64,000 nucleotides of DNA from Nanobdellati archaeon (GTDB lineage Archaea; EX4484-52; WAPT01), in NCBI GenBank assembly GCA_015520605.1, contig WAPT01000001.1:5428-69427 (forward strand), written 5' to 3'. The translations under genes and the position numbers were made by a program. Under the pieces are notes generated by a model that worked only from the letters and a program-made list of their open reading frames with translations, was not told where the DNA came from and did no database searches. Below, in pieces: positions 1,117-31,415 of the stretch (its first letter is position 1; the number at the start of each line of letters is the position of its first letter).

Positions 1117-3726
1117 TCATAACCTCACGGAAACTGTTGTGATTTCAAATGGATTTAAAGATATAACCAAGTTATTTTCAGAAAATTTAATGTTTTTTTT
1201 TGATTTTTTATATTTCCTTTCTAAAATATCCACAATGCTTGCATCTTTTACTTCCTTGAAAAGTTTCAAAACGGCTCGTGTTTCACGACCCGCTGTTTCA
1301 TAAATCCTTGCTATGATTTTTCCTCCGTCTTCACTCCTTTTAAAAGCGCTGAGAACCACATTGGAAGGTTCCACTTCCAGAAAAGACCTGCTGCTACTGC
1401 ATTTTATTTTCTTTTTTAGGATCATCATCCTGTGGTTGAATTGATAAGCGTGTATGTACGGCTCGGACTTTCTCCACCCTTCCGTATAAGGTAGTAAAGC
1501 GTACTCAAAAACATGTTCTCCGAGCTCGGTAGCGTTTACTGGAATAATCGGACCTGCCTTTCCATCGCAGGACAGAACATTTACGGACCTTAGCAGAGTT
1601 AGATAAATGCTACCATCTCTGATTTCATTTTCAGGGATTCCTTTATTGATTACAGTCACCCCCAACCCGTCATCATCCTCATAAGCTATCCACCTCAAAG
1701 CCGGATACACGCCGGAGGGCGCTTCCTTATATCCTGTAAAATCATCGTAAAACAGGTTGGCTTTCCTTTCCACCACACCAAACTGTGTCTCACACCAGTA
1801 AGTTTTGTTATTTATGGGTGTTGTGAAGCGGACTCTCAGTCTTATTCTCGGGTGCTTGTTGAGAATGATTGTCGTGCAGTCTATTCTCGGCAAGTCCCTG
1901 TAAATGACGATTCTTTTCCTGAAGCTAAGTGTGTTGTGTCTCCACAACAAAGGTTTGAAGTGCTCCACAAGTCTGTAGGGCCATCTTAGAGAAAAGTAAT
2001 CACCCACAACATCTATGATAGCTCTGAGGTTGGAAGCTGTGATTTTCACCTCCTTTATTTTGAACTCGCCGTATTTGATTCCATCTCCACTTTCTGTCTT
2101 TATGGGATTCTTCAGCAGCTGTCTGTGAGAGTAGAGATCTCCTGATTCTTCCTCTATAACGAGCTCATTACCTCCAAAAATCCTTTTTTTGTTCATCCAA
2201 ACTTCAATCATGCCGTTTTCTTTGTTTACCTTCACTTCAAAAAATTTGTTTCGAATTGTGCTTTCGCTCACATGGATTTTGTCCCGGGTATTTGTGTTTT
2301 TACCCGTCTCTATTACTCTGTACGCTCTGTAGCCCAGCGGTGGAACATCCGCAATGAAACCAAGTTTTACTTTTTTAATAGAGCCGTCTCTGTGTTTTTC
2401 GGAAGCGATAACTTCCACATCAACCTTCTTATCCCCGCTTTCCAGAAGAACTCCACAGTTCTCACGTATTCTCCCGGCCTCAAGCTCCAGCTCAACTTCC
2501 ACCCAATCAATAACTCTCCACGGAAGCGGGTTAAATACGACAAAATCCGCACCCATTTCTCTGTTGGAGTCGCTTTCTACAATTGATGATAATATTTCTC
2601 GCATCATTTCTTCACATCTCCTATCTATAAGAGAAGCGCAACGCTCCGCTTCCTCAAGAGCAGCATCTGTGCTTGTGCCTGATATCACATCGTGGAAAGC
2701 TAAGAACAGCAGCTTTTTCCAGCAATCCTCCAGATATTCTGGATAGCGTCCAGTCAGTAAAAAATTCACTGTGGCAAATTTCTCTAAGGTTATGAGCTTG
2801 CACTCCAGTGCGCGGAGCGTCTTTTTTATTTTTATCCTGCTTGAGGCCGTATCGGGAAAAATTTCTGAGTACTTACAGGAATACATTTCCCCCTTTCTCA
2901 CAACCAATTCATTCCGATATTTTTCCAGTGCTCTGAAAAACTCTGAAGGTGTTGAGATCCTCATCTCCGCATCTTCGTGCTCCTTATTCCATTTTTTCAC
3001 AGCTTCAACTATCTCCTCACGCGGAAGGGTGACTCCGCTACCGCAAGGCATGAGTATGTGTGGCGATGCAGCCACACCTTTCAGAAATCTGTAGGATTCT
3101 TCCAGCCTGTCCAGATTCAGACCCGCTCTGTAACCTAAGGGCATAAAGTGAGCAAGAATTCTTGTTCCATCCAGAGCTTCCCAGATAAATTCAGAGGGTT
3201 TAATCTCGTGGGATCCGCGCCTGAATGCAACATATTTGTATCCTGCTTTTCTGTAAATTTGGGGGAGTTGTGCGTTCAGCCCGAAGCTGTCAGCCTGCCA
3301 CATAACTTCAACACCCTTCCCGAATTTTTCCTGCACATACTTCTTGCCCACAAGGATCTCTCTGATGAGCGTCTCCTCCTGCGGAATCATCGTATCCGCC
3401 ATTAAATACTCCCCGTCTGCAATCTCAATTTTACCTTCCTCTATGAATTTCGCGAGTTTTTTGAAAAGTTCCGGTTCTCTCTTTTCTATTTCTTCCAGAA
3501 GGTGTGTCTGCTCCAGAAGAAACCTGAATTCCTCATATTTTTCAAGAAGCTCAACAGCTTTTTTCAGTATCATAATGTTGATACGGAGGTAATCCTCCTT
3601 GCTGAAGATCCAGACCGCATCGTAGTGTGTGTGAGGCACAAGGTAGATTATATTTTTCTTCTTTTTCCTGCCTTTTTCGGTTCTCCCTCCCGCACAGGTC
3701 TTCCGTGTTTTGTTCGAGTTATCCAT
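1117..3726 (-). CDS. Glycoside hydrolase family 38 alpha-mannosidase
   Basis: The 869-aa product has an N-terminal 'YLVPHTHYDAVW' metal-binding motif. It also has 'WQADSFG' and 'FHDVISGTS' blocks and a long beta-rich C-terminus, which is the typical GH38 architecture. Confidence 0.7.
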   Translation of the reverse strand: MDNSNKTRKTCAGGRTEKGRKKKKNIIYLVPHTHYDAVWIFSKEDYLRINIMILKKAVELLEKYEEFRFLLEQTHLLEEIEKREPELFKKLAKFIEEGKIEIADGEYLMADTMIPQEETLIREILVGKKYVQEKFGKGVEVMWQADSFGLNAQLPQIYRKAGYKYVAFRRGSHEIKPSEFIWEALDGTRILAHFMPLGYRAGLNLDRLEESYRFLKGVAASPHILMPCGSGVTLPREEIVEAVKKWNKEHEDAEMRISTPSEFFRALEKYRNELVVRKGEMYSCKYSEIFPDTASSRIKIKKTLRALECKLITLEKFATVNFLLTGRYPEYLEDCWKKLLFLAFHDVISGTSTDAALEEAERCASLIDRRCEEMMREILSSIVESDSNREMGADFVVFNPLPWRVIDWVEVELELEAGRIRENCGVLLESGDKKVDVEVIASEKHRDGSIKKVKLGFIADVPPLGYRAYRVIETGKNTNTRDKIHVSESTIRNKFFEVKVNKENGMIEVWMNKKRIFGGNELVIEEESGDLYSHRQLLKNPIKTESGDGIKYGEFKIKEVKITASNLRAIIDVVGDYFSLRWPYRLVEHFKPLLWRHNTLSFRKRIVIYRDLPRIDCTTIILNKHPRIRLRVRFTTPINNKTYWCETQFGVVERKANLFYDDFTGYKEAPSGVYPALRWIAYEDDDGLGVTVINKGIPENEIRDGSIYLTLLRSVNVLSCDGKAGPIIPVNATELGEHVFEYALLPYTEGWRKSEPYIHAYQFNHRMMILKKKIKCSSSRSFLEVEPSNVVLSAFKRSEDGGKIIARIYETAGRETRAVLKLFKEVKDASIVDILERKYKKSKKNIKFSENNLVISLNPFEITTVSVRL

Positions 3727-3786: not shown

Positions 3787-4743
3787 CTATATGAATTCTG
3801 GGTACTCCTCTCTGTAAGCAGCGTGTGCGGCCATACCGTTCAGCATGCACACAATCCTTTTTATTCTGAAATTTACCACTTCCAGAAGCTCTCCGACCGT
3901 TTGCTCCATCGTGCGGAACTTTATTATGTGCAACCGCCTTTTTCGGGCTTCCTCAACCAGAAATTCGTTTATTTTTGTACATGCCTCAAAATCCTCTTCT
4001 ATGAGCTGCCTATCAGTTTCTCCTTCCCTCAGTCTTTTTGAGAAGAACATTTGACGGTACGTTCCCTTTTCAGGTGCTTTCAGAAACACCTGTATCACAT
4101 TCGGTTTTTTAAGCAGATCTGACTCGAGAAGCCATGGAGTGACATGCACACCCTCAATGGCGACATCCTTTTTATCTTTGATGGATTTTTTCACGAGCTC
4201 GACTATGAAAGGACTTAGGAATTCGACCTGCTTCACAAACCCTTCTATCTCTGGATGTTCCGTGACTTCATGACCCGGAAGTTTTTTCCACACACGATAA
4301 GACGGTAGATGGAGAATCGGGTCTTCCTTTATCAGAACCTTCAGCACACGCCTTATGGCATCAGTGGTTATTGTTCGGGAAATTGCCAGACGAAAACCCA
4401 CATCAGTTAAAGACACCGTTTTTCCCACACCGGGAGGGCCGCCGACAAGGATTTGGAGGGGTTCAGCGATACCCCTCCTCCTGAGAACATTGTACCTGTG
4501 CCAGAGCTCGTATCTTTTCGTGAATTTGGAACCACAGATATTGGTAAGCGCATTCTTTGTTATCTCAAAAAGCTCTTCCGCAGCTATGCTTTTTCTGCCA
4601 AAAACGCTGTCCTTAACGTACTCCATAACTCTGACAGCATCCTCGAAAGGCACGCCCGTTTTAAGAACCGATCGGAAGATAAGATTCTCAGAGAACCTCA
4701 GCTTAAATCCGTTTATCTTCACGAAAGGTAAGTGACTTTCCAT
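3787..4743 (-). CDS. ATP-cone plus P-loop kinase of the 2-phosphoglycerate kinase family
   Basis: The N-terminus has an ATP-cone-like pattern (VKINGFKLRFSENLIFRSVLKTGVPFEDAVRVMEYV). This is followed by a Walker A motif, 'LVGGPPGVGKT'. The gene is divergent from the GTPase gene at 4914. Confidence 0.5.
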   Translation of the reverse strand: MESHLPFVKINGFKLRFSENLIFRSVLKTGVPFEDAVRVMEYVKDSVFGRKSIAAEELFEITKNALTNICGSKFTKRYELWHRYNVLRRRGIAEPLQILVGGPPGVGKTVSLTDVGFRLAISRTITTDAIRRVLKVLIKEDPILHLPSYRVWKKLPGHEVTEHPEIEGFVKQVEFLSPFIVELVKKSIKDKKDVAIEGVHVTPWLLESDLLKKPNVIQVFLKAPEKGTYRQMFFSKRLREGETDRQLIEEDFEACTKINEFLVEEARKRRLHIIKFRTMEQTVGELLEVVNFRIKRIVCMLNGMAAHAAYREEYPEFI

Positions 4744-4913: not shown

Positions 4914-6056
4914 ATGAAAATAACCACGAGCATACCTAAACTTGATGAGCTTTTAGAGGGGGGTTTACCTGTCCATTCAACTGTGCTCCTGTTCGCGGAT
5001 CCTCTCGCAGACGCGGCAACTTTCGCGCAGCAAATACTCTCCCACAGACTGGAGGAAGAAGATGTGGGAATATATTTGAGTACTAACAAGCTTCCAAAAG
5101 ATGTTGAGAACAATATGTATAAACATGGGTTCAAAACACAGGAAATAATTTTCATAGACTGTCTGTCTTTCACCTTGAAAAGGAAAAGTGATGCAAAATA
5201 TACTCTTGATGAGATTATAACCAGCGGTAGGCCTGCATGGGAGAAAACAAAGGAGTTGTGGAAGAAGGCCATTCAGGAAGAGAAGGGTCAGAAACTAGCA
5301 GTCTGGGACTGTCTTGAAACATTCATGGGATTCGTGGATGAAATAATAGAGTTTGTTAAGGAATGTAAAAAGTTGAATGAAGAAAACAAAACAACATCTG
5401 TATTTATCCTTACAAACTGGGGTTATGATCCCAAAGATATCGAGAGGTTAAAGGAATCTTTTGACCTGGTTATAGATCTCGCCACAGTATCGAAAAAACT
5501 CATGTATCTGAACTACTACAAAGTGGATCACAAGCCTGCGATACCCTTCAAAATCACTCTGACAGGAGTCACTCTCTACATACCAAAGATATTGATTACG
5601 GGGCCTTACAATGCAGGGAAGTCCACAATGGTTAAGGCTCTTTCGGAGACCGCAGTGAGCATAGACAGGTTGGGTACAACCATAGCCTTGGATCACGGAT
5701 ATGTGGAAAAGAAGGGGTTTGCCTGTAATATTTTTGGCACCCCGGGTCAGGAAAGATTCGACTGGATAATGGAAGTCCTCTCTAGGGATGTGTGGGGTGT
5801 GATACTTATTGTGGATTCGACCAAACCGGAATCATTTCCCAGAGCGCTGGAAATGTTGGAAAAGGTAAAGAAGGAGAACATCCCGTTCATAGTGTTTGCA
5901 AACAAGCAGGACTTGGAGGGTGCACTTCCGCCTGAAGAAATAAAAGAAAGGCTTGGTGTTCCCATAGTGATCGGGGGATCCGCGAAAACAGGAGAAAATG
6001 TAGAAAAAGCTCTAATAACCTTATTTGAAGAAATCCTTAAAAGGAGAGTGTTTTGA
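4914..6056 (+). CDS. Fusion protein with a degenerate KaiC/RecA-like N-terminal domain that has lost its Walker A motif, followed by an MglA-like small GTPase domain
   Basis: Residues 1-200 begin 'IPKLDELLEGGLP...', paralogous to the KaiC-like protein at 6496-7173. Where that protein has GVPGAGKTT, this one has 'LLFADPLADAAT'. The C-terminal half carries G1 'ITGPYNAGKST', G3 'FGTPGQERF' (an MglA-type T-x-P-G-Q), G4 'ANKQD' and G5 'SAK'. Confidence 0.6.
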   Translation: MKITTSIPKLDELLEGGLPVHSTVLLFADPLADAATFAQQILSHRLEEEDVGIYLSTNKLPKDVENNMYKHGFKTQEIIFIDCLSFTLKRKSDAKYTLDEIITSGRPAWEKTKELWKKAIQEEKGQKLAVWDCLETFMGFVDEIIEFVKECKKLNEENKTTSVFILTNWGYDPKDIERLKESFDLVIDLATVSKKLMYLNYYKVDHKPAIPFKITLTGVTLYIPKILITGPYNAGKSTMVKALSETAVSIDRLGTTIALDHGYVEKKGFACNIFGTPGQERFDWIMEVLSRDVWGVILIVDSTKPESFPRALEMLEKVKKENIPFIVFANKQDLEGALPPEEIKERLGVPIVIGGSAKTGENVEKALITLFEEILKRRVF

Positions 6057-6131
6057 CCTTCCAAAAATCTTTAAATAATCCAAAAACCACAGTTTATACT
6101 GTACTTCAAAAATCAAAGGAGGGGTTGAAAG

Positions 6132-6506
6132 ATGCCTAAGGAAGAAGAATTGAAGGAAGCACTCTCAGATCTCAAAAATGTTTCAGGTGTGGTGGGAAAT
6201 GCTGTTGTGACTCCTGATGGCTTGCTTGTATTTTCAGATCTTCCAGAGACAGTAAACAAGAGGGCTCTAGCAGCAATGGCAGCGGCTATTGTGGGTACGG
6301 GCATGCAGGTGACTAAAGAGCTTAACATTGGAGCTTTAAGCCAAGTAATGGTGGACGCTCAAGAGGGTAAATTCATCTCCATTAGTGTAGGTTCTGATGA
6401 AGATTCTCCGATTCTCTCAACGCTCGTCCAGCCGAAAGCGAACTTAGGTTTGGTATTGCTGGAAATGGAAAAGGCGGCGAAAAAAATCCAGAAAATCATG
6501 GCATGA
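6132..6506 (+). CDS. Roadblock/LC7 domain protein (MglB-like GTPase regulator)
   Basis: The 124-aa protein has the Roadblock/LC7 pattern of an alpha-beta-beta-alpha-beta-beta fold ('VSGVVGNAVVTPDGLLVFSDLPE...'). A GGAGG ribosome-binding site sits at 6118-6124, immediately downstream of the GTPase gene. Confidence 0.65.
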   Translation: MPKEEELKEALSDLKNVSGVVGNAVVTPDGLLVFSDLPETVNKRALAAMAAAIVGTGMQVTKELNIGALSQVMVDAQEGKFISISVGSDEDSPILSTLVQPKANLGLVLLEMEKAAKKIQKIMA

Positions 6507-7173
6507 CCTCTATTCCGCTTTCACTTATTTTGAATTTAAGAGTTATTGGTAGGTTTCTCGTTTCCCTCATTCTGTTTATTTTTAACAGTCTTATATCATT
6601 CTCCATAATGAAATTTATCGTTCCGTCTGTAAGGCTGTTAAGGGCTGTGACGACGTCTGGTGTGTGCATACCCTCCTCCACGGCTATCAGTATGGTCATG
6701 CCTGCTCCTTTCAGCCTGGCAGATAGCATGGAAATGAATCTCAGACAGAGGTCTTTCGGCACGAAGAGGAACATGGTCGAAAGTGAGTCCATCACAACCC
6801 TTTTCACATTCTGATTTCTCATTTCCGTCAGGGCCTTTGTTACAGCTATGGTGAAGTTGGTGAGATTTGCTGGATTGACCACCTCCTTTCCCTCTTCAAC
6901 CCCCATCTGCCAAGAATATGCGTCTATAAACTTCAGAGGCTTCCCGTTTACATCCCACCCAAAAGATTTCATGCTGTTGATTATTTCCTCGGGAGATGCA
7001 TTAAGAGTGATGTGTATTGCTCCCTCCCCATTCTTTAGTCCCTCATAAATGAACTGGTTACAGAAGGTTGTCTTACCTGCCCCAGGCACTCCCACGAGGA
7101 GTATGGATGCTCTTTCCGGTAGTCCACCACCCATAGCTTCGTCGAGCTTCTGAATTCCGGTGGCTATTCTCAT
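6496..7173 (-). CDS. KaiC-like single-domain RecA-superfamily ATPase (COG0467 type)
   Basis: The N-terminus 'GIQKLDEAMGGGLPERASILLVGVPGAGKTT' has an intact Walker A. A Walker B-like 'RVVMDSLS' follows. The 225-aa size is typical of archaeal KaiC/ArlH-like proteins. Confidence 0.75.
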   Translation of the reverse strand: MRIATGIQKLDEAMGGGLPERASILLVGVPGAGKTTFCNQFIYEGLKNGEGAIHITLNASPEEIINSMKSFGWDVNGKPLKFIDAYSWQMGVEEGKEVVNPANLTNFTIAVTKALTEMRNQNVKRVVMDSLSTMFLFVPKDLCLRFISMLSARLKGAGMTILIAVEEGMHTPDVVTALNSLTDGTINFIMENDIRLLKINRMRETRNLPITLKFKISESGIEVMP

Positions 7174-10464: not shown

Positions 10465-11037
10465 TCAGCTTATTGCCTTCGCCACCTCCTCAAGGAACTT
10501 TTTCGCAAGCTCATGACTCTCTTTAGCGAGCTCCTTGCTCCTCTCAAAAAACAACGAGCCATACGCTCTGGAAATGAACTTGGATGCGTTCCTTAAAATA
10601 TCTGCCGAATCCCTGTAAGTTGGAAGTCTGGATGCTGTGATTATGAATTTTATCAGTCCGTGAGGGGAACATCTCTCCACATTTTCAGCATCACTAACAA
10701 CTCTCTCTTCCAAACTCTCAGGCATGCCTTCTTGTGCCCATACTCTGAAGTCGTGCTTTTTTATCGCGCTGCATATTGCGGCTCTCCTATCAGCAGAGAC
10801 ACTCAAATCCTTCAGAATTCGTTCTGCTGCTACAGCGCTTTCCTCAGCATGGGTCATTACATTTTTGCCATCAAAAGCAACATCATGGAGAAGGGCAGCC
10901 ACCCTCACAATCGTTTTGTTTGCTCCGACACTTTCTGCAATCTCTTCGGCAAGCTCCATCACTCTGAGCGCGTGAGGGTAACCGAAAAGAGCGTCATGCC
11001 CAAGTCTAGCCTTCACTATACGGTGTAGCTCTTCCAT
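10465..11037 (-). CDS. HD-domain phosphohydrolase
   Basis: An H...HD motif is present ('ALRVMELAEE...AALLHDVAF'). The product is 190 aa. Confidence 0.65.
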   Translation of the reverse strand: MEELHRIVKARLGHDALFGYPHALRVMELAEEIAESVGANKTIVRVAALLHDVAFDGKNVMTHAEESAVAAERILKDLSVSADRRAAICSAIKKHDFRVWAQEGMPESLEERVVSDAENVERCSPHGLIKFIITASRLPTYRDSADILRNASKFISRAYGSLFFERSKELAKESHELAKKFLEEVAKAIS

Positions 11038-14108: not shown

Positions 14109-14819
14109 TCAGCTCGCTTCTCTTGTTTCCAGCTCGAGATAATCAGCATAGCTGGGGAGGGTTATGAGAAGTTCAAACTCCGTATCATTGACCACAAGAT
14201 GTGCTATCACCCTTCCTCGCGGTAGATTATTTCCGTACATTTCGGCATAAATATAGCCTGTAGCATTTTCAAACACACTATCCACAAGGACCCTCACCGT
14301 GCCATTAAACGTAACGTTTTCCTTTAACAGTTTTACACCTGCGATGATCCTGCTCATATTTATCTGCTGCCAGTTATCGGGGGTTCCTGCCTTGGTTATG
14401 TTCACCTCAAGATATGAGTTCCTCATTGTGATCACATTCCCATTATCCACCACACTAACATCGTCACCTTCCGCTATTATGATGTTCCCTTCCCGAATCA
14501 TAGCACTCCTTGCCACAAGCGGAGTGTCTGTTTTCATCCTGAACTCTATTAGATTTGAGCGGTTATCAATGATCAGCACACCCCTCCTTATAACCAGCGG
14601 GACAACTCTGGTGGAACCCTTACCTTCAGCGATGATTTCCTGGAGCGATGTCGCGAGATCATGCATCATGGTCTTAGCACTTTCAAACGCCGCTTTGTCC
14701 CTAAGTGATTGAACGTAGGGAGTTATCGTGCTTATTAGGATTGCTATCACAACGATTGCGATGGTCATGTAGAGCGTTCCCGCAAGAAGGGGCGATACAG
14801 CCTTTCTTTTTCTCAGCAT
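14109..14819 (-). CDS. Type IV pilin-like protein with a class III signal peptide
   Basis: The N-terminus 'MLRKRKA|VSPLLAGTLYMTIAIVVIAILIST' has a basic stretch and an Ala at the putative cleavage site, followed by an about 22-aa hydrophobic segment. The mature part is beta-rich with N-x-S/T sequons. Confidence 0.5.
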   Translation of the reverse strand: MLRKRKAVSPLLAGTLYMTIAIVVIAILISTITPYVQSLRDKAAFESAKTMMHDLATSLQEIIAEGKGSTRVVPLVIRRGVLIIDNRSNLIEFRMKTDTPLVARSAMIREGNIIIAEGDDVSVVDNGNVITMRNSYLEVNITKAGTPDNWQQINMSRIIAGVKLLKENVTFNGTVRVLVDSVFENATGYIYAEMYGNNLPRGRVIAHLVVNDTEFELLITLPSYADYLELETREAS

Positions 14820-14945
14820 GATTTTTTGTTAGATTCCAACAAATATATGTGTATGTGTATTCGCGCTCAGAGTGATCTTCACGATCAATCAAGAATTGAT
14901 GGCAAGGTCGCAGCTGCTGAGATTCCGGAAATGCAAGTCCGTTTT

Positions 14946-15170
14946 TCACTTCACATGGATATCGACAATTTCACCCAGCCGGATCACAGATTTTATTATT
15001 TCTGACTTGTCGGTAAAAAGGCTTACCATTCCGTCCCTGTGTTTCTTTAATACAATCTCCACTCGTTTTTCCACCGGACTGGCAAACACAGTTCCGTTGG
15101 GAAGCTCTATTTTTTCGTAACCTTCCAGTTCCAGCTCCGGTTCATTCTTCAGCACAATCTCCACGATCAT
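14946..15170 (-). CDS. Small hypothetical protein (74 aa) embedded in the pilin-like cluster
   Basis: This is an ORF with no signal peptide and nothing overlapping it. No motif was recognised. Confidence 0.3.
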   Translation of the reverse strand: MIVEIVLKNEPELELEGYEKIELPNGTVFASPVEKRVEIVLKKHRDGMVSLFTDKSEIIKSVIRLGEIVDIHVK

Positions 15171-15292
15171 TAACTTTACTAGTAGTTAAACGTTTATAAA
15201 GATTTTAAATATTTCACACGCAACCCGCGGATCTCAAAACAGGGACATCGCGAGATATTCCCGTAGCATCATCCCTGTAGTGTGTGACCGGT

Positions 15293-15877
15293 TCAGCAGG
15301 GTGTGAGTGTTCTTGTGGTGATGATCCTGGTGTTTCCCGCAAGATCGGTGGCGATCACCACAATACCTCCGTAATATTCTGTCTTCATCTCAGCGCGGAA
15401 GCACATGTCTGTATCCACACTATATACCCTAAAAGTGATATTTGCGGGAAGCGTTATGGAATAAGTCACCTCCTCGCGTTTCACATCCCAGGGTAGAAGG
15501 GGCGATGCAAAGACAATATTCCCATTCACATCCAGATAAAAGTTGGTTGTGTTTTCATTTCCATTGAAGAAAAGAAGGTCATAACCTGTGCCGTTTCTCT
15601 CCACCTCAAAAACGAACACGCTGACATTTTCACCTCTCTCTTTTAGTAGGGAAGATACCTCATCGTAAAATGAGACCACGGCATATCCATCGGTTTGCTT
15701 ATCAGCCAGCATCGCTACCAGCGATTGGTCGAGGAATGTTCTGAACGCTTCCCTGCTCGTTGAGATGGTCAGAAAACTCGTTCTTCTTCCCATCCGAGGT
15801 ACGGTCAGCAGTGATGACAGAACGAGGATGACCATTAAAGCCCCTATGATGAGCCACTGTCCCTTCCTCACTTTCAT
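15293..15877 (-). CDS. Type IV pilin-like protein with a class III signal peptide
   Basis: 'MKVRKG|QWLIIGALMVILVLSSLL' matches the classic archaeal prepilin peptidase site (K/R-G followed by Q and a hydrophobic stretch). The start overlaps the upstream gene by 4 nt. Confidence 0.55.
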   Translation of the reverse strand: MKVRKGQWLIIGALMVILVLSSLLTVPRMGRRTSFLTISTSREAFRTFLDQSLVAMLADKQTDGYAVVSFYDEVSSLLKERGENVSVFVFEVERNGTGYDLLFFNGNENTTNFYLDVNGNIVFASPLLPWDVKREEVTYSITLPANITFRVYSVDTDMCFRAEMKTEYYGGIVVIATDLAGNTRIITTRTLTPC

Positions 15878-16503
15878 TCGATTACCACCCTGATCTCGGC
15901 GTAATTTTGAGCATCCATAACCACGGGATAATAAACCTGTGCCACGTTATCAGTATCCTGGGTGTTGTTCCCACACACAGATTCCTTTCTCACCACGATC
16001 CAGGCCGGGTTGGTGCAAGAAACGGAAAGGTATACCAGCCCCTCCAGACTGGGTGGAATTTCGATTCTGTAAAGTCTTGTGACCGTATAGTTCCCGAGTG
16101 TTGTGGAATTAACCTTAAAAAAGCACGATGTCAGGGTGGTCTCCACCGGGATGACGTCTATGTATGCTGTTTCGTTCTCCGCTATAATAAGATTAAGGGA
16201 TGTGGAAAGGTTCGCAACTATGGCTTTTAAGCTCAGCATACCGATGTCAACATAGACCTTTTTTACCCCCACGTACGGTTGAACTATTCTCTTTATGCCT
16301 CCGGCATCACAGCTGATGGTATAATTTTGCAGCAGTGAAGCCCGTGCTGCGAAATCCATAATCTTCGAAAGCTTTTCGGTGTATATCCAATTGTCCCCCG
16401 TTTCTTTTTCCGGTAGAAGCAGCCACACCACAAAAGAGATAAGCAGCATTCCTGCTATAACACCCTCAATTATGTGAATGTAGCCCTTACGTCCTATCTC
16501 CAT
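15874..16503 (-). CDS. Type IV pilin-like protein with a class III signal peptide
   Basis: 'MEIGRKG|YIHIIEGVIAGMLLISFVVWLLL' shows R-K-G then a hydrophobic stretch containing a Glu, as in pilins. It overlaps both neighbours by 4 and 10 nt. Confidence 0.5.
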   Translation of the reverse strand: MEIGRKGYIHIIEGVIAGMLLISFVVWLLLPEKETGDNWIYTEKLSKIMDFAARASLLQNYTISCDAGGIKRIVQPYVGVKKVYVDIGMLSLKAIVANLSTSLNLIIAENETAYIDVIPVETTLTSCFFKVNSTTLGNYTVTRLYRIEIPPSLEGLVYLSVSCTNPAWIVVRKESVCGNNTQDTDNVAQVYYPVVMDAQNYAEIRVVIE

Positions 16504-17693
16504 AACCTGATCACCATATCGACCGGAGTTATTGTTCCGTTCTCATAAAGCAATATGCCGGTGTATTTTCTCACCCAGATGTTGGTGAAGAGAGGTTCCT
16601 TTTTCCCGAATGTGAAATTCCCGATGGTTACATTGAAATCGAAGCCTGTAACCCCCGAGTCCTCCTTTATTTTCTCATATGTGCTGTTCTTGATGCTGTT
16701 TAACGTGTTATCGCTCCAGATTCTCAACAAATAACGTCCTGCAACCGCCGTGGAGGAGTTGGTGAACAGCAAATTCTCACAATCTCCACAATTAACAGCA
16801 CCATCACAGAAGTATATTTCTGTTCTTTTTGTGTTCTCAAAGCTCACCCGTATGGTCAGGGTTCCAACCCTTACATTGCATGCGGAACTGTCGGTCAGAA
16901 AGTTCATGTTTACGCCCGTGTTGGTATCGTAAAGGGAAATGAAACCGGTGCTCACAGCATAATTCCAGCCGTTTACCAATGTGGTTGATGATGACCCATC
17001 ATACAATGTATCAAAGTCCCTTACAAGCACGAATGTGTAATTCTGGGGGTTCTCGGATATCAGCCATAGTCTCGGTGAGTAGGCATCCATGATGAGTTCC
17101 GTTGTGTTGAAGTCCAGCTCGATGAACGAGCACCCGTAGATAGAGCGCTGAAAGTTTGAGGGCATGAGCACGGGTTGAAATAGATAATTTGTGCCGTTGA
17201 AGTCCAGGGACGTTATGGAAGCTGTGCCGTATCCCACTTCTAGATACGTGTTCAGTATGCTATTCGTCCCTTCCCCGAGGTCGGACACGCATCCGTATGT
17301 TTTTATATCCCCGGAAGATACGCAGAGAAACGGCAATCCCGTGGTCACCACACTCCTTATTTTCCCGTCATGCACACCGACGGGAAGTGTTCTATTTTTC
17401 TGAAAGCATGTGGTTATGGATGAGTTAGCGGCTGTAAACTCAACTGGGTAATGCTCAACGCGGCATCCATTCACGACCCCCATATATGCCTCTGCGTCCG
17501 TGCTGAAAGCTTCGGCGACCCTTAGTATCTGGGCTGCCGCTAATCCTGGATCGTGTCTCTGAAAGGTGACCAGATACTTCGCGTTAAGAAATTTTAATGA
17601 AATTGTGAGCGTTGTCAGAAAGATGATCATTGCCAGAGTCCATTCAAAATATGTTGTGGCCTTTCTCGAATCTCTTATGGTTGTTCTTCTCAT
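16494..17693 (-). CDS. Type IV pilin-like protein with a class III signal peptide. This is the largest member at 399 aa and carries many N-glycosylation sequons.
   Basis: 'MRRTTIRDSRKA|TTYFEWTLAMIIFLTTLTISL' is the signal region. Sequons include NSS, NRT, NGT, NYT and NTT. Confidence 0.5.
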   Translation of the reverse strand: MRRTTIRDSRKATTYFEWTLAMIIFLTTLTISLKFLNAKYLVTFQRHDPGLAAAQILRVAEAFSTDAEAYMGVVNGCRVEHYPVEFTAANSSITTCFQKNRTLPVGVHDGKIRSVVTTGLPFLCVSSGDIKTYGCVSDLGEGTNSILNTYLEVGYGTASITSLDFNGTNYLFQPVLMPSNFQRSIYGCSFIELDFNTTELIMDAYSPRLWLISENPQNYTFVLVRDFDTLYDGSSSTTLVNGWNYAVSTGFISLYDTNTGVNMNFLTDSSACNVRVGTLTIRVSFENTKRTEIYFCDGAVNCGDCENLLFTNSSTAVAGRYLLRIWSDNTLNSIKNSTYEKIKEDSGVTGFDFNVTIGNFTFGKKEPLFTNIWVRKYTGILLYENGTITPVDMVIRLWR

Positions 17694-17716
17694 GCTCCCA
17701 AAACCCCCTCCTCCCG

Positions 17717-18277
17717 TTATCTTATTCTTATGTTTATCATAGTCGAATTGTACACCTTCCCTTCATTTCTCAATACAAGCGTTGTGGATCCCTCCGATAA
17801 AAACAGATTTCTTTCGAATGAACACGATTCGCACGGTATCATGATCCTGATCACAAAGTCTTTCGATAACCAGTCCTGCCCGTACCCGAACGTCGGGACG
17901 GCATCATCCGGAACCTCGCCAAAGTAAATGGACTTGCTCCTCCTTTCTATCTTTGAGTTATCTTTGGCTGTAAAAAAAATGTACATCTTGGATTCCAGTG
18001 GAGTAACAACGCTAACACCTGCTGATGTGTTCTGCCAGCTGGAATTATAGGTGGAGAAAAGCAGGATTCCGGCAGAATAGCTGTCAGTATTTCCGTAAAC
18101 TAAGGGTACCTCATCGCTCCTGTGGGTTTCGGTGAAGTTGCTCAAAATTTCAACTGAAAGCGACCGTGCTGAGATGTTCTGCGCCTTAACAAAGACGGAC
18201 AAGAGCGTGATGAGCACAGCTCCGACTATGACAAGCATGAATGAGATGAGAAGCGCTGAAGCTCTTGCTGTTTTCAT
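17717..18277 (-). CDS. Type IV pilin-like protein with a class III signal peptide. It is the first gene of the cluster.
   Basis: 'MKTARA|SALLISFMLVIVGAVLITLLSVF' is the signal region. Its promoter must lie in the 44-65 nt divergent gap at 18278-18342. Confidence 0.5.
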   Translation of the reverse strand: MKTARASALLISFMLVIVGAVLITLLSVFVKAQNISARSLSVEILSNFTETHRSDEVPLVYGNTDSYSAGILLFSTYNSSWQNTSAGVSVVTPLESKMYIFFTAKDNSKIERRSKSIYFGEVPDDAVPTFGYGQDWLSKDFVIRIMIPCESCSFERNLFLSEGSTTLVLRNEGKVYNSTMINIRIR

Positions 18278-25762: not shown

Positions 25763-27427
25763 ATGGTGTTTTGTGCGAGAGGGATTTATGATAAAGTAAT
25801 GATTGTAGGTATCGTATTGTCTGTCATTTTTTGCGCTTCCACCGCGTTCGCACTCGAGAACCATAATTTAATGTTCTGGAATGGTGATATGCAAATATTC
25901 TTGAACAAAAATGTCTATTCTGCCGGAGAGAATCTAAAAGCGACAATCAGAATTTCTAATGGTGAGAATTATTTTATCACGGATGGAAAAATTGTTATTG
26001 AGATTGTGTACGGATGTGACACGCCCACATATCCTGCGCAGGTTTCCGATTGCGACGATGTTATTTACGAAAAGGTGCTTAGAGACATTCACATCCCTCC
26101 GAAAGGAAACAGAGAGATAAATTTCAGCTACTCATTACCGCAGGATCTGCGTGAGGGTACCTACAGGGTTGACGCATACTTTACTGCAAATAGAGCACCG
26201 GTAAAGGGGATTCACTTCATCTTTCTGCCGGGAGCTTATCAGGACTTCCGGGTGGAGAACACGGCGGGAGACTACCCATCTTTGAAGATACTGAGGACAA
26301 AAACAGTTTTTAATGGTGAGCGTGGACAGGTCGCTGCTCCGGTCCAGCCGGGTGGTGTGATCAACGGGACTGTGTGGGTTGAAGCTCTCGACGACAGCGC
26401 GATAGGTAAGAACTACATGCTGAGATTGCGGTTGTGTTCATGGGATGACACCAACTGCGATGGATATAACCTAACGAAACGGTTTTATCTGGACTCGAAA
26501 GTTCAAAGTATATGGGTGAAAATGAAAGCCCCGACCAAACCGGACGCATACGCCATAAGAATTGAGATAGTGGATGAAAACGAGAGGTTGCAGTCCCTTT
26601 ACAGAAGCAGGATAATCGTGACCGGGATAACGGCCAAGATAAGGAAGGTTCAGCTCGCTTCAGTGGTGTTGAGGAAAGGTACACCCACGGAACTCAATGT
26701 GCTTGTGGGTACATCTCCGGATCATTATACCGAACCCGAGGTTAGAAATGTTGTTTGTGCGGTGAAGATCACCGATAAACCATCCGAAAAACTTGTGTTT
26801 ACTGGTAAAAAGACCATAGAAAAACTCTCTTCAAAAGACAACATAATTTTCGTTCCCCTGAGTTTCTCGATAACCCCGAACACGGATACGAAAAATTTCA
26901 GGGTGTGTATCGAGCTGCGTTCTGAAGCGGGAAAACTTTTTGATAAATATTGTTTTGATGTGAACGCCAACGACTATAAGGATGTACTTCTACCCGATTA
27001 TAGTGCCAAGCTTTTGAAATACTTTGAGAACAACCGCACAGCGGTGCTTGAAGTCTGCGCTAGGTACAGCATTATTGATAAGGATGCCAACATAATGGCC
27101 GATCTTCTTCTTTACAAAAATAACGGAATCATAAAAATGGTTCGCAATGTTAAAATAAATGGATGTAAGCTGTTCTCCTTCGATAAAATTGAGGGAGAGC
27201 CTGGCGTTAATTACACGTTGGTTTTAAACGATAAGGTAAACGATCTGCAGTATATTTTTAACTTCTCACCACGGAGCGCTTCAGAAAATACGGCAGTTCC
27301 GGCATCCCGGGAACAGAGGACGGGAATCGGTAACGGTAAACTTGTGCTGTGCATAATGTCCCTTGTCGCTGTCGTGGTTATTATCGCTTTTATCATGAGG
27401 AACTGGAAAGGTGGTGAAAATGCATGA
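25763..27427 (+). CDS. Secreted, C-terminally membrane-anchored surface protein (554 aa). It is translationally coupled to the downstream giant gene.
   Basis: An N-terminal signal or TM segment reads 'MIVGIVLSVIFCASTAFALE'. The body is beta-rich. The C-terminus 'LVLCIMSLVAVVVIIAFIMRNWKGG' is a TM anchor with a basic tail. The last 17 nt overlap the next ORF, and AT content is higher than the local average. Confidence 0.5.
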   Translation: MVFCARGIYDKVMIVGIVLSVIFCASTAFALENHNLMFWNGDMQIFLNKNVYSAGENLKATIRISNGENYFITDGKIVIEIVYGCDTPTYPAQVSDCDDVIYEKVLRDIHIPPKGNREINFSYSLPQDLREGTYRVDAYFTANRAPVKGIHFIFLPGAYQDFRVENTAGDYPSLKILRTKTVFNGERGQVAAPVQPGGVINGTVWVEALDDSAIGKNYMLRLRLCSWDDTNCDGYNLTKRFYLDSKVQSIWVKMKAPTKPDAYAIRIEIVDENERLQSLYRSRIIVTGITAKIRKVQLASVVLRKGTPTELNVLVGTSPDHYTEPEVRNVVCAVKITDKPSEKLVFTGKKTIEKLSSKDNIIFVPLSFSITPNTDTKNFRVCIELRSEAGKLFDKYCFDVNANDYKDVLLPDYSAKLLKYFENNRTAVLEVCARYSIIDKDANIMADLLLYKNNGIIKMVRNVKINGCKLFSFDKIEGEPGVNYTLVLNDKVNDLQYIFNFSPRSASENTAVPASREQRTGIGNGKLVLCIMSLVAVVVIIAFIMRNWKGGENA

Positions 27428-30400
27428 ATCGAAAAACATGATGGGTGTCGGAATCATTATTTTGGTAAGCATGTTTTTTGGCATTGCGATTAGCTCGAAA
27501 ATTTCCTTTGGGTGGTGGAATGATGATTGGAAATACAGGATACCGATAAACGTGAGCTATGATGGATCCTCAGAGATCGATAATTATCAGCTCAAATTGG
27601 TGATCAATTATCAGGAGGGCATGCAATGCGATTTTCGAGACATACGGTTCACACAAGTTATTAACGGTGATGAGATCGAGATCCCCTACTTTATTGAGAA
27701 TTATACTGATTGTCAAGAAGCATTTGTTTGGATTAAGATGATAAAATTGACTCCCGGAGAAAATACAGTGTATCTTTATTTTGGAAATCCTAATGTTTCC
27801 TCAAAGAGTTCCAGTAGCGATGTGTTCCTCGGAAAAATAAGCAACGTTGCCGGGTGTTGGTACTTTGATAAAGAGACAAACAACATCGTCATAGATTGTT
27901 CGGGAGTGGGGAACCCGATGACTCTGTACAATGGTGCTACCCTGGGGGATGGAAAATACGGATATGCCCTCGAGCTGGACGGCAATGACGATTATGCAAG
28001 CTCAGACCTTAACGGAATCAACTTCCAAAAAAATGAGATCGCAATCCTCTTCTGGTTGCTTGATGATATGGAAAGCAATGGCAATAGGGAATGGTTTATA
28101 AATAAGCTGACCACTCAACCTTCCACGGGTTTTGGATTTTATACAACAGACACAGACGAGAACAACCTTAGAAGGCTCGTTTTTTCTGTCGGTAGTACTG
28201 CGGCTTCCAAAGAAGTCAGCATCATGATACCGTCTCACACATGGGTGAGTGTTGGGGGAGTTGTAAGACTCTATAACTCCACCCATTATAGGGTTGAGTT
28301 ATGGATAAACGGGAGTATGGTTAATTATACCTACATAGAAGACGCCTCGCTTAAACTGGAGAATACGGAGCCGCTAACGATAGGTATGTTCAACAACAGC
28401 TTCTATGCTTACGGAAGGGTGGACGAGCTCTATATTTTCAACACATCTTTAGACGGAAACACTATAGAACAACTTTCGGTTGCTCGCGGTGTGGTTCTGC
28501 CAGAAGAGCCGCTAACCTTATATCTTACACAATACGCATCCCCGCAGCCAGCATACACCATCGGAGCCATCGAGAAGTATCTCAAAGCTGTTGGTGAGCC
28601 ATGTACAAGTGACGACGAATGTGAAACTGGACACTGCGCTGTCGATTACGATGGGAATGGGGCATGGTGCATGCCCAAAACATCCTGTGCTCATAATGGT
28701 ATAGAGTATAAGGACGGTAGCTATGCACCGGAGTGTTTATCCAAGACATCCACATGGAAATGTTCTGCTGGAACATGGCAGGAATTCAATTGTGGCAGGT
28801 GGAGTGTGTGTAAGAGCGGAAAATGTTTATTGAAGGATAGTGATGGGGATGGTGTTCCGGATAGGGACGATCTGTGTCCCGGAACTCCGGCTGGGTGTAA
28901 AGTGTATGCCAACAATGGATGTCCGAAGGTACCGTTCAAATACCACATAAAAAACAATATATCCTCATCATGTCCCGGATCTTCCATACCCGTAGATCCC
29001 GAGCACTACTGTCTGAGCACATCCCAAGACCCAAAGATCAAATTTTATGTTGGGACCGTGCTTGCAAACTCTGAGCCCTACTGCGATCCTCTGTATGGCA
29101 CTGAGGGATGGCATGATGTAGAAGACGGAAGAAATTATTGCGAATTCCCAATCCCTGTAAGCATAAACCCCGGAAAATACACATTGTATGCCGAGTATGA
29201 GCTTGGGGGGAGAACCTACAAGGATGTCGTAGAGTCCGGGTTCGTGGTGAAAAGTTCGTGTTCCACGAGAACCCGATGTAACCATGGGGGGCACATGGAA
29301 TCCAACCCCACGTACAACATCGCATTCTCTAACGGCCAGTGTGAGGTGTCCGGAGGCATCTATTATTGTAAGAACGGAACCACCGTTTCACTAACCTCAA
29401 TATCCAGAGTTGTCCCGCACTGTAGTGATGGTGCATACGCGTCAGCAAGACCTCCTGGATTGCTCGCATGGGTGTATTCCGGTAACGTATTTTTGGCTGA
29501 AAAAGACAACAAGTACGCTGGATGTTCGCTGTGGAATCCTTCAGTTAACGACAGGAGATATTTATTCAGTCTAAAAGTTGGGTTTAGGTGGGCGTGCAAC
29601 ATTGGATGGGCAAGCGGGGCGAAATACAACCATATAAACAACATATACACATTTAAAAAACCTGGCAAATACATGCTTTACGTTGATTTGATAAACGCTG
29701 TGTGTGATTCTCCAGATTATATCTGTCCGACCAACTGTAGTGGATACAAGTGTTTATGCTACATAGGAACTATGAAAGGTGATCAGTGGGGGTTCCTAAA
29801 CCTCGGAAAATACGAAATTGCGGTAGTTGACCCAGAGCTGAAGTTTATAAGCACTCCCAGTAGCCCCATCAAACTGGATGGGTCTCCATCGATAACCTTG
29901 ACATGGAAAATCAGGAATACCGGCATTGGCGATATCGACGTTAAAGTAGCTCCCGTATGTCCGGCGGGGTGGAAATGCGTGGTTGATCCAACCCGTGTCA
30001 GAAATGTGAAGGAAAACAACAATGTTACAATTACACTCACGGTCTACAACAAAAAGCCACCGGCAATGGTAAATGCCAAGCGGATTCCAGTTGGAATAAA
30101 CATAAGTTATTTTGATTCTTACGGACTCTATCCAGAAAAAAGAACAGGAAATTCCGTAATTCTCATCCTAGATAATCGGCCCCCGGTCGTGGGGTTCAGC
30201 GCACCTTCGGGATATGGCTGGAGCGCTTCGGATCTGCCATTCAAAATAACCTGCGATGACAACCCATACACCAGCTACGGAACTTATGGCGGATGCAATA
30301 AAATATATTATCTGGTCGTGAATTCGTCTCAAAAATGTCCGCAGGATCTGAACAGTTATAAAGTATATTCATCTAACCCTCAGGAGACGCTAACGTTTTT

Positions 30401-31415
30401 GGGCAAAATAACATGCCCTGAAGGAACCGTTTGCAAAAAGAAGGTCTGCTATGCGGCGGAAGACAGATTTGGGTACAGGAGTCCGATAACTGCTAGCGAT
30501 GAGTTCAGGATTGATAAACAGCCACCGGTCATCAACGCCACGGTTCTACCCTCCCCTGTGCTCTCATCGTTCGGCCCAGAGAAAGAAAAGGTCTTCATCA
30601 TTTTAAGATGTGACGATGGTGACGGGAGCGGATGTGCTATAACTAAAATCTCCAGCACAGCACTTTTCTCCTCCAAACCATGTGAGTTGCAAGGAGATGG
30701 CGAGACCATATGCGAATTTATCGCTCCCGACTGTACTGGTTTAATCAGCAGAACACAGCCCTATTCTGTAGAAAGTGAAGACATGGTTCACAATTCAATT
30801 TCACATACTTACGAATATGAAGTCAAATTTAATACAGGATGCAGTTGTTACACAGGCAACGAATGTTATAGCGGTTCTTGTGTTGATGGTAGATGTAAGG
30901 GGGTTATAAATGTAACGCAGGGAGGAAATGTTGTTCAACCACAACGACCTTCATCCAACCCGATCGAAGTAAATATTTCACACACGTCCCTTCGGTTGAT
31001 GGTTGGGGAGGTTTATCGGGGAGTTATAGATGTCAAGAACAACAATAACTTCATGGACACTGTTGTGCTACACATAAACACCAATCCCGAATATCCATGG
31101 AAACACTGGGTGTATTTTGAGGGTGAAAAATTCTCCATGAACGGTGATCAGTTCGTTATCAACCTGAAGGGCGAGGAGGAAAGGAGAGTTGTGTTTATAA
31201 TAGAACCCAACATGGTAACCATTTCGCCGATAACCGTGAATATTACCGCTGAAGGTTTGATCTCTGGAGGAAAGTCAACACAAACCATGAAAGTGGATGT
31301 TGTGGCACATGGAAGCAACGGGGCAAAAAGTTCACTACCTGGAATTGAGTTTTACAATGTATGGGTGATCGCACTGATGGCTGCGTTCCTCTCCTATTTA
31401 AATTTCCGGAAATAA
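27411..31415 (+). CDS. Giant (1334 aa) cell-surface protein with DUF2341-like, LamG/ConA-like, thrombospondin type 3-like and cysteine-rich modules plus a C-terminal TM anchor
   Basis: 'WKYRIPINVS...DFRDIRFT' matches the DUF2341 pattern. 'LELDGNDDYASS' is LamG-like. 'DSDGDGVPDRDDLCPGTPAG' is a TSP3-like Ca-binding repeat. Multiple Cys-rich blocks follow, and the C-terminus is 'LPGIEFYNVWVIALMAAFLSYLNFRK'. Confidence 0.55.
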   Translation: MVKMHESKNMMGVGIIILVSMFFGIAISSKISFGWWNDDWKYRIPINVSYDGSSEIDNYQLKLVINYQEGMQCDFRDIRFTQVINGDEIEIPYFIENYTDCQEAFVWIKMIKLTPGENTVYLYFGNPNVSSKSSSSDVFLGKISNVAGCWYFDKETNNIVIDCSGVGNPMTLYNGATLGDGKYGYALELDGNDDYASSDLNGINFQKNEIAILFWLLDDMESNGNREWFINKLTTQPSTGFGFYTTDTDENNLRRLVFSVGSTAASKEVSIMIPSHTWVSVGGVVRLYNSTHYRVELWINGSMVNYTYIEDASLKLENTEPLTIGMFNNSFYAYGRVDELYIFNTSLDGNTIEQLSVARGVVLPEEPLTLYLTQYASPQPAYTIGAIEKYLKAVGEPCTSDDECETGHCAVDYDGNGAWCMPKTSCAHNGIEYKDGSYAPECLSKTSTWKCSAGTWQEFNCGRWSVCKSGKCLLKDSDGDGVPDRDDLCPGTPAGCKVYANNGCPKVPFKYHIKNNISSSCPGSSIPVDPEHYCLSTSQDPKIKFYVGTVLANSEPYCDPLYGTEGWHDVEDGRNYCEFPIPVSINPGKYTLYAEYELGGRTYKDVVESGFVVKSSCSTRTRCNHGGHMESNPTYNIAFSNGQCEVSGGIYYCKNGTTVSLTSISRVVPHCSDGAYASARPPGLLAWVYSGNVFLAEKDNKYAGCSLWNPSVNDRRYLFSLKVGFRWACNIGWASGAKYNHINNIYTFKKPGKYMLYVDLINAVCDSPDYICPTNCSGYKCLCYIGTMKGDQWGFLNLGKYEIAVVDPELKFISTPSSPIKLDGSPSITLTWKIRNTGIGDIDVKVAPVCPAGWKCVVDPTRVRNVKENNNVTITLTVYNKKPPAMVNAKRIPVGINISYFDSYGLYPEKRTGNSVILILDNRPPVVGFSAPSGYGWSASDLPFKITCDDNPYTSYGTYGGCNKIYYLVVNSSQKCPQDLNSYKVYSSNPQETLTFLGKITCPEGTVCKKKVCYAAEDRFGYRSPITASDEFRIDKQPPVINATVLPSPVLSSFGPEKEKVFIILRCDDGDGSGCAITKISSTALFSSKPCELQGDGETICEFIAPDCTGLISRTQPYSVESEDMVHNSISHTYEYEVKFNTGCSCYTGNECYSGSCVDGRCKGVINVTQGGNVVQPQRPSSNPIEVNISHTSLRLMVGEVYRGVIDVKNNNNFMDTVVLHINTNPEYPWKHWVYFEGEKFSMNGDQFVINLKGEEERRVVFIIEPNMVTISPITVNITAEGLISGGKSTQTMKVDVVAHGSNGAKSSLPGIEFYNVWVIALMAAFLSYLNFRK

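Follow-up and report, generated by a model that had tools for sequence, protein, structure and literature searches.

The module described here lies in a stretch of 64,000 nucleotides (nt) from the genome of a Nanobdellati archaeon (GenBank assembly GCA_015520605.1, contig WAPT01000001.1, positions 5,428 to 69,427 of the forward strand). This whole stretch is called the window, and positions are counted from its first letter. The Nanobdellati are the DPANN kingdom, and the genome record closest to the locus is a Nanobdellati archaeon metagenome-assembled genome (MAG), with 96% identity. The module comprises three open reading frames (ORFs): a gene in which a KaiC-like domain is fused to a small GTPase, a gene for a Roadblock/LC7 protein and a gene for a single-domain KaiC-like protein that is read from the opposite strand (Table 1). 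All three had been claimed in a preliminary description made from the sequence alone, and they are present at exactly the coordinates given there.

The Roadblock gene follows the fusion gene after 75 nt, one fewer than first counted, and its ATG is preceded by the GGAGG ribosome-binding site that had been noted, which lies 9 nt 5' of the start. The overlap of the convergent KaiC-like and Roadblock genes likewise measures the 11 nt (6496–6506) reported. None of the module components was recognised a second time in the window, which was covered with Pfam to ~23 kb and by eye over the remainder.

Table 1. Features of the iKaiC–GTPase module in the window (aa, amino acids; iKaiC, inactivated KaiC; the last row is from a related locus).
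Feature	Position	Strand	Basis
Fusion gene, predicted inactivated KaiC-like domain plus MglA-family (Group 2–5 type) small GTPase, 380 aa	4914–6056	+	ORF
iKaiC pseudo-ATPase domain (predicted), residues ~1–222	4914–5579	+	PF06745, Foldseek
Degenerate Walker A, FADPLADAAT, residues 27–36	4992–5021	+	Aligned to GVPGAGKTT of the neighbour
Walker-B-like strand AVWDCLETF, retained, D132	5298–5324	+	Family alignment
Zero-linker junction, KaiC hairpin GVTLYIP into GTPase strand beta-1 KILIT	5565–5600	+	Invariant columns, model
G1/P-loop GPYNAGKST, residues 230–238	5601–5627	+	Motif read in family alignment
G2/switch I LGTT, residues 253–256, T255 and T256 invariant, no adjacent Arg finger	5670–5681	+	Family alignment
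G3 GTPGQ, residues 275–279, Gly at the canonical Asp site, Q279 invariant	5736–5750	+	Rab1 alignment
G4 NKQD, residues 330–333	5901–5912	+	Motif read in family alignment
G5 SAK, residues 356–358	5979–5987	+	Family and Rab1 alignments
Spacer between fusion and Roadblock genes, 75 nt, A/T-rich TATA-like stretches, GGAGG at 6118–6122	6057–6131	+	Sequence read
Roadblock/LC7 (MglB-type) gene, 124 aa, Asp-Gly pair in VVTPDGLLV	6132–6506	+	Pfam
Single-domain KaiC-like gene, "type A", 225 aa, Walker A/B kept, catalytic Glu pair lost	6496–7173	-	Pfam, alignment to KaiC
Asn58-Ala59 at the KaiC catalytic Glu-Glu position	6997–7002	-	HMMER, TFEESP vs TLNASP
Walker A GVPGAGKTT of the KaiC-like neighbour	7066–7092	-	Alignments
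Fully inactivated standalone KaiC next to the fusion in locus L008; likewise L023, L039, L045, L051, L056, L058, L060, L064, L078	7179–7928 (of L008)		

The N-terminal domain of the fusion is KaiC/RecA-like, as had been supposed from its motifs. The KaiC family PF06745 matches residues 4–192 with 42.2 bits (gathering cut-off 26.6), and the only additions from an NCBIfam scan are a generic small_GTP domain and, below threshold, KaiC/ArlH models. The full-length fusion was modelled with AlphaFold2 (AF2) at a predicted local distance difference test (pLDDT) score of 90.8 and a predicted template-modelling (pTM) score of 0.86, the only uncertain part being switch I (residues 251–256). A Foldseek search with this model returned mostly KaiC matches. 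For the N-terminal domain the best match was 2dr3 (PH0284), a hexameric single-domain KaiC-like ATPase, with a template-modelling (TM) score of 0.79 and a root-mean-square deviation of 2.7 Å.

The domain had also been predicted to be catalytically dead, and this prediction is borne out across the family. The Walker A motif GxxGxGK[ST] is absent from the N-terminal domain in all 120 of the closest homologues of the fusion, which have ISDMLIDKAM, LADLVVDKMK, LTGTLIDKSS and the like in its place. In addition, STN stands where KaiC has its catalytic Glu-Glu. Other positions of the domain have been kept: F37, Y54 and D82 are invariant in the family alignment, and D132 (the Walker-B Asp) and D184 show a conservation of at least 90%. 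The loss of Walker A throughout the homologues, together with the retention of core residues, points to a pseudo-ATPase that is old and maintained by selection, not to a gene in decay. Judged by these motifs, canonical ATP binding and hydrolysis are lost and the domain is an inactivated KaiC (iKaiC).

A destroyed Walker A is also what one would see in a decaying KaiC pseudogene, or after an assembly or frameshift artefact. This explanation is refuted by the conservation of the full-length architecture, which is found again in hundreds of independent assemblies, with identities as low as ~36%, and it can be given practically no weight. The segment that joins the two domains is among the most conserved and the AF2 model is confident throughout. 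Hundreds of database proteins with the same architecture likewise place the fusion far beyond chance.

The iKaiC domain was thought to be a paralogue of the neighbouring KaiC-like protein, and the two are indeed related (30% identity, E 9e-15). When the fusion N-terminal domains of the related loci were scored against standalone KaiC neighbours, 81 of 81 were closest to those without the catalytic glutamates and none to a canonical KaiC. By this measure, the iKaiC domain is paralogous to a partly degenerate branch of KaiC. One detail of the original comparison, a GGGLP opening shared by the two proteins, does not hold, as the fusion has EGGLP instead.

The two domains of the fusion are joined without a linker. 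Here, the KaiC fold ends in a hairpin (...IPFKITLTGVTLYIP) that passes directly into strand beta-1 of the GTPase (KILITGP), and in the AF2 model the strands are unbroken across residues 209–229. Junction residues G218, P224 and K225 are invariant in the family alignment, and the standalone KaiC-like neighbour terminates at the Pro equivalent to the junction Pro. The absence of a linker and the invariance of the junction argue for rigid mechanical coupling of the KaiC domain and the GTPase.

The C-terminal part of the fusion, residues 223–375, is a small GTPase for which Arf is the best Pfam model (53.3 bits), with Ras at 50.3 bits. G1 and G4 are present as first quoted. The G3 motif had been taken as TPGQE, with Thr in place of the usual Asp, and this was an error of register. 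In the HMMER alignment, I-F-G-T-P-G-Q of the fusion stands opposite I-W-D-T-A-G-Q of Rab1, so that it is Gly, not Thr, which replaces the Asp. Among 121 family members, GTPGQE is found in 113 and NKQD in 88, and T255, T256, P277, G278 and Q279 are invariant. In sub-branches of the fusion family (e.g., P0067, P0068 and P0072–P0089), G4 is altered to NFQN (14/121) or NKAN (8/121), which suggests that guanine specificity may have been changed or lost in some lineages.

In a survey of prokaryotic Ras-superfamily GTPases, only members of the MglA family lacked the G3 Asp (Wuichet and Sogaard-Andersen 2014, PMC4316618). Group 1 MglA, from Myxococcus and Thermus, has TVPGQ and an intrinsic Arg beside the G2 Thr, whereas Groups 2–5, which include the archaeal Group 4, have GTPGQ and a Thr replacing the Group 1 Arg. 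In the same survey, an insertion between G1 and G2 was found in bacterial members of the family and not in archaeal ones, MglA genes were coupled to MglB/Roadblock genes, and an Asp-Gly pair was conserved in the MglB partners of Groups 2–5 (PMC4316618). The Group 1 hallmarks, TVPGQ and the intrinsic Arg finger, do not occur in the fusion GTPase, which has GTPGQ and Thr-Thr instead. When it was aligned to Myxococcus xanthus MglA (a sequence identical to PDB 6hjh_A; 27% identity, 40 bits, hhalign probability 96.7%), a gap of ~10 residues appeared in the fusion between G1 and G2. The GTPGQ and Thr-Thr signature and the coupling to a Roadblock gene argue for the MglA family in the broad, Group 2–5 sense, and by its signature the GTPase is a member of that type. 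The earlier assignment to MglA thus survives in this broad sense, and the Thr-for-Asp logic behind it does not.

Overall similarity gives a different picture and weakens the contrast first drawn with Ras and Arf: both scores and fold are nearer to Arf, Arl and Rab than to characterised MglA. Rab1B scores 52 bits (phmmer), higher than the 40 bits of MglA. A model of the GTPase domain alone (pLDDT 89.5) has Arl6, Arf, Arl2/3, Rab1 and FeoB among its top 50 folds, and MglA is not among the top 50–60 solved proteins nearest to the domain by sequence or fold. Arf proteins are marked by the motif D-x-G-G-Q/H and an N-terminal amphipathic helix. The fusion departs from the Arf family at G3, with Gly for the Asp and Pro for the second Gly, and its N-terminus is taken by the KaiC-fold domain. 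A position of Group 4 MglA close to Arf/Sar has been noted in the literature, in agreement with the similarity to Arf.

Some residues of the GTPase set the fusion clade apart. D251-R252, H261 (in the interswitch) and R310-A311 (window 5664–5699 and 5841–5846) are conserved within the clade and not in standalone relatives. R252 lies 3–4 residues before the G2 Thr, a position that recalls the intrinsic Arg finger of G-alpha, and could be either a catalytic residue or a contact to the iKaiC domain.

The Roadblock partner had been recognised correctly. Robl_LC7 (PF03259) matches the middle gene with 41.3 bits (cut-off 23), the protein carries the Asp-Gly pair, and the linkage to the fusion is conserved in related loci. 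Its nearest solved relatives are the Asgard proteins 7f8m and 7yh1, and also CvnB (3leq).

The convergent gene matches the KaiC profile with 129.4 bits (Pfam). It had been described as an intact KaiC-like ATPase, which is true of Walker A and Walker B (VVMDSL) but not of the two catalytic glutamates, both of which are lost: iTLNASP replaces vTFEESP of KaiC. This pair, which we take to be E77/E78 in CI numbering, is also lost in orthologues of the neighbour (LNA, FNA, LDA), and a second kind of neighbouring KaiC in related loci keeps FEE, LEE or IDE. ArlH/FlaH is likewise not known to have the catalytic Glu pair. From these motifs, the neighbour probably binds ATP and its canonical hydrolysis is doubtful. 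A bona fide circadian KaiC is a double CI–CII protein of ~500 aa. The neighbour, a single domain with 68 bits against the NCBIfam circ_KaiC model (cut-off 546), is not one of these.

The fusion belongs to a large family. A word-indexed search with the fusion gave 660 matches, among which full-length ones extend down to ~36% identity. At 50% identity the fusion falls into more than 100 clusters, for the most part from DPANN archaea. Homologues come from Aenigmatarchaeota, Micrarchaeota, Altiarchaeota, Burarchaeum and one Methanocellales MAG, and they are labelled only "GTP-binding protein" or "ATPase domain-containing protein". When the GTPase domain alone was run with phmmer exhaustively against 1.84 billion representatives, 77 matches were found at E <= 1e-30. 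Among the best 150 matches, ~100 are proteins of 360–415 aa whose C-terminal part is the GTPase. Next come standalone GTPases (160–250 aa, 36–49% identity), most of them with GTPGQ and GTT. In a crude neighbour-joining tree, a single clade holds 85 of the 94 fusion GTPase domains and, apart from these, mainly truncated fragments, in line with one main origin for the fusion. Full-text literature searches, which did not cover the 2017 KaiC-hub paper discussed below, found no account of a KaiC–GTPase fusion. A proteomics paper on N. equitans and Ignicoccus names KaiC and Roadblock separately and has no bearing on the fusion.

The gene neighbourhood was followed in 87 related loci, in which all ORFs were scanned with purpose-built hidden Markov models for Roadblock, KaiC and the fusion; for the KaiC-like calls, a fusion was counted only if its GTPase domain was covered. 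A Roadblock gene lies on the same strand, at most 300 nt downstream of the fusion, in 45 of 63 eligible loci, and at most 1.5 kb downstream in ~55 of them. Where at least 2.5 kb of flank was available on both sides, 29 of 32 loci have Roadblock no more than 2.5 kb away. A KaiC-like paralogue is found within this distance in 21 of the same 32 loci, 11 of which have at least two. Most often, a canonical KaiC (Walker A and Glu both present) is combined with one in which both motifs are degenerate. The placement of the KaiC gene varies, being upstream on the same strand in Aenigmatarchaeota and convergent downstream in the lineage of the window.

In many loci, a standalone KaiC-like gene with a degenerate Walker A (GPPGxEK...) and a replaced Walker-B Asp (...FQS/FHS/FRS...) stands right after the fusion, indicating that fully inactivated paralogues are common partners. 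Other neighbours recur across lineages, each in 4–6 of 65 dereplicated groups: FIST, HAMP, PAS-histidine kinase, V4R and TrmB, and also rhomboid, AIR-synthase-like, T2SSF and pilin-like genes. Examples are FIST at 3597–4847 of L029, V4R at 6003–6569 of L067, HAMP at 11007–11861 of L081 and a multi-PAS histidine kinase at 103–3039 of L072. The recurrent sensor genes suggest that the sensory inputs may be variable.

These observations are best explained, in our judgement with slightly better than an even chance of being right, by a conserved archaeal (mainly DPANN) KaiC-hub module whose pseudo-ATPase scaffold is rigidly joined to a GTPase under Roadblock control. It has been proposed that archaeal signalling hubs are formed by KaiC-like domains and by inactivated KaiC domains (Makarova 2017, as cited in PMC5847659), and the iKaiC fusions that this citing source documents are with REC, HalOD1 and similar domains. 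CirA, an experimental case of a KaiC-like protein, controls archaellum expression (PMC10983859). In the module, the GTPase domain should cycle between GTP and GDP, given that all nucleotide-binding motifs and the catalytic Gln279 are retained. The Roadblock protein, presumably dimeric as in the Asgard (PMC10933270) and MglB structures, would act on it as a GTPase-activating protein and perhaps also as a guanine nucleotide exchange factor, as MglB does for MglA. The iKaiC domain would attach this switch to oligomers made by the KaiC-like paralogues or insert it into them, or would itself build such oligomers, so that the nucleotide state of the KaiC ring and the state of the GTPase may influence each other. 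Inputs would come from lineage-specific sensors, and outputs would be lineage-specific too and might occasionally be type IV pili (T4P).

Several observations weigh against this picture. The assembly of a ring and the docking of Roadblock are purely inferred, and some functions of Roadblock proteins have nothing to do with GTPases. The GTPase is, in overall similarity, closer to Arf, Arl and Rab than to any characterised MglA, which makes extrapolation from MglA/MglB biochemistry a long reach. An equivalent of the KaiC Arg finger would be expected to show as a conserved Arg in the iKaiC domain, and none was seen in alignments read by eye. The catalytic glutamates are lost from the KaiC-like protein of the window, so an ATPase-driven cycle is doubtful there. 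Finally, there is no KaiC-like gene within 2.5 kb in 11 of the 32 loci, which means that an adjacent KaiC is not obligatory. The convergent KaiC-like gene is absent within this distance from L003 and L010, relatives with 73% identity.

A more specific form of the hub module is a mixed ring of the fusion with KaiC-like paralogues, in which up to six GTPases would form a second, Roadblock-gated tier in the place that CII takes in KaiC, and the junction would couple the nucleotide state of the ring mechanically to that of the GTPase. This proposal is tentative, and we would sooner doubt than accept it. The main rival to the hub module, judged fairly unlikely, is the possibility that the iKaiC domain acts in cis on its own GTPase, as a built-in effector, a sensing surface or an element like a guanine nucleotide dissociation inhibitor, with no ring and with the fusion as a monomer or dimer bound to a Roadblock dimer. 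The KaiC-like neighbours would then be paralogues under no more than loose joint regulation. The pTM score and the invariant, zero-length junction imply a fixed geometry between the domains, as this possibility would have it; the fusion-specific D251, R252, H261 and R310 could be interdomain contacts, and a third of the loci with at least 2.5 kb of flank are without an adjacent KaiC-like gene. What speaks for the ring over action in cis is that the best structural match of the iKaiC domain is a hexameric KaiC-like ATPase, that its Walker-B Asp and core residues remain conserved, and that KaiC-like paralogues are strongly enriched beside the fusion (21/32 loci, often two).

Pilus genes raise another question, which is whether the module is an archaeal counterpart of the MglA/MglB polarity switch that steers type IV pili or surface filaments. 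On the minus strand of the window, at 14109–18277, are five to six small to medium ORFs with N-termini like class III signals (e.g., MLRKRKAVSPLLAGTLYMTIAIVVIAIL and MEIGRKGYIHIIEGVIAGML). They have only sub-threshold Pfam matches to DUF7266 and DUF7289 and are probably, from their sequences, a type IV pilin-like operon. Such an operon had been placed 7 kb from the module. It looks genuine, but the distance is 7.6 kb and five unrelated genes on both strands lie between. Over the two-part coverage of the window given above, no T2SSE or T2SSF, assembly ATPase or TadC was recognised, and a search of the flanks for a T2SSE Walker-A motif, which is a heuristic and hence a weak negative, gave no match.

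The link with pilus loci that the preliminary description had anticipated is found in few relatives. Pilus genes or T2SSF/T2SSE occur in only ~5 of the 27 dereplicated groups whose sequence extends to 9 kb or more, with class III signals such as ...RAQISTEF...; these groups are represented by L006, L008, L079, the L016–18 group and L084. A steering role would be in keeping with these pilin clusters and T2SSF/T2SSE genes beside the module, with the operon in the window and with reports of KaiC-like ATPases and Roadblock (arCOG02603) in archaeal T4P loci (PMC4858521). Set against it are the small number of groups, the distance in the window, the missing Group 1 hallmarks and the equal frequency of FIST, HAMP, PAS-histidine kinase, V4R and TrmB neighbours. 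On this balance, a dedicated pilus switch is improbable.

The pairing of a KaiC-like NTPase with a GTPase could also suggest a component of anti-phage defence. PADLOC gave weak matches to LeoA (13 bits), mad8 (27 bits) and IetA (16 bits), all of them at the P-loop and none beyond it. The neighbours of the module are housekeeping and signalling genes, and no effector such as a nuclease or toxin was seen with it. The candidate was therefore rejected and a defence role is very improbable.

The hub module can be compared with several known systems. It shares with MglA Groups 2–5 (PMC4316618) the GTPGQ motif, the Thr-Thr pair, the Gln, the absence of the insertion and the Asp-Gly pair in Roadblock. 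That survey took single-domain proteins of 150–240 aa and left longer ones out, whereas the fusion is longer and carries a KaiC-fold domain in front. Group 4 was found to have no conserved neighbours and is from methanogens; the fusion, in contrast, has conserved KaiC-like neighbours and is mainly from DPANN, and a place for it inside Group 4 is only putative. With MglA–MglB of Myxococcus and Thermus (6hjh, 3t12, 3t1q), the module has in common a non-Asp G3 with Pro-Gly-Gln and regulation by a Roadblock dimer, which for the fusion is predicted. The bacterial MglA is a free-standing protein with TVPGQ, an Arg finger, the G1–G2 insertion and roles in polarity and T4P, none of which was found for the fusion.

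The iKaiC hubs (Makarova, Galperin and Koonin 2017, in the form in which they are cited) resemble the fusion in their lost catalytic motifs, their fusion to signalling domains and the presence of KaiC paralogues and sensors nearby. PH0284 and other single-domain KaiC-like hexamers share the fold and the single RecA-like domain, and the neighbouring gene resembles them. The fusion differs from them in having no P-loop at all in its N-terminal domain and in carrying a GTPase where KaiC carries CII. Rag–Ragulator and the Asgard GTPases with Roadblock or longin (PMC10933270) also combine a GTPase on a scaffold with regulation by Roadblock-fold dimers. There, the GTPase is fused to Roadblock or longin itself, whereas in the fusion it is joined to a RecA pseudo-ATPase and Roadblock is a separate gene. 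The families of all the parts of the module are known, and the literature already contains archaeal MglA/Roadblock pairs as well as the concept of iKaiC. What looks new is the widespread, linker-less iKaiC–MglA fusion and its conserved link with Roadblock and KaiC-like paralogues in DPANN.

Other genes of the window are recorded here for completeness. A P-loop gene (3787–4743, minus strand), which is kept in the 96%-identical relative L001, diverges from the fusion and has a 170-nt upstream region in common with it. Its product resembles 2-phosphoglycerate kinase (NCBIfam 162 bits, cut-off 343) and has no Pfam match. Beyond it, at 1117–3726 on the minus strand, is an 869-aa GH38 alpha-mannosidase (Pfam 200 bits) in what is apparently a small-genome DPANN archaeon; in L008, a GH57 enzyme and a glycosyltransferase lie near the module. 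Two large neighbouring ORFs of 554 and 1334 aa (25763–31415, plus strand) carry hydrophobic segments at the N-terminus, and their products are probably secreted or located at the surface. A 257-aa ORF at 49380–50153 on the minus strand, which begins MTRLICVASGKGGVGKTT, has by eye the look of a MinD/ParA-type deviant Walker A. ATPases of that type have been reported near archaeal T4P loci (PMC4858521).

Signal transduction in archaea is poorly understood as a whole, and MglA/Roadblock pairs are regarded as GTPase switches of ancient origin. To our knowledge, biochemistry on KaiC-like proteins and on MglA/Roadblock pairs is lacking in most archaea, and we know of no genetic system for DPANN. The fusion family physically joins the proposed KaiC hub and the MglA/Roadblock switch. 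With 380, 124 and 225 aa, a rigid junction and conserved partners, the module offers a compact system in which to ask how a Ras-like switch communicates with a RecA-type ring. If the mixed ring were true, it would be an undescribed hybrid ATPase/GTPase signalling machine, gated by Roadblock and widespread in DPANN. The module also gives a route to ask what Roadblock proteins did before they were recruited in eukaryotes to Rag/Ragulator and dynein. Its abundance in DPANN, whose genomes are reduced and which depend on hosts, suggests that its role in these archaea may be indispensable.

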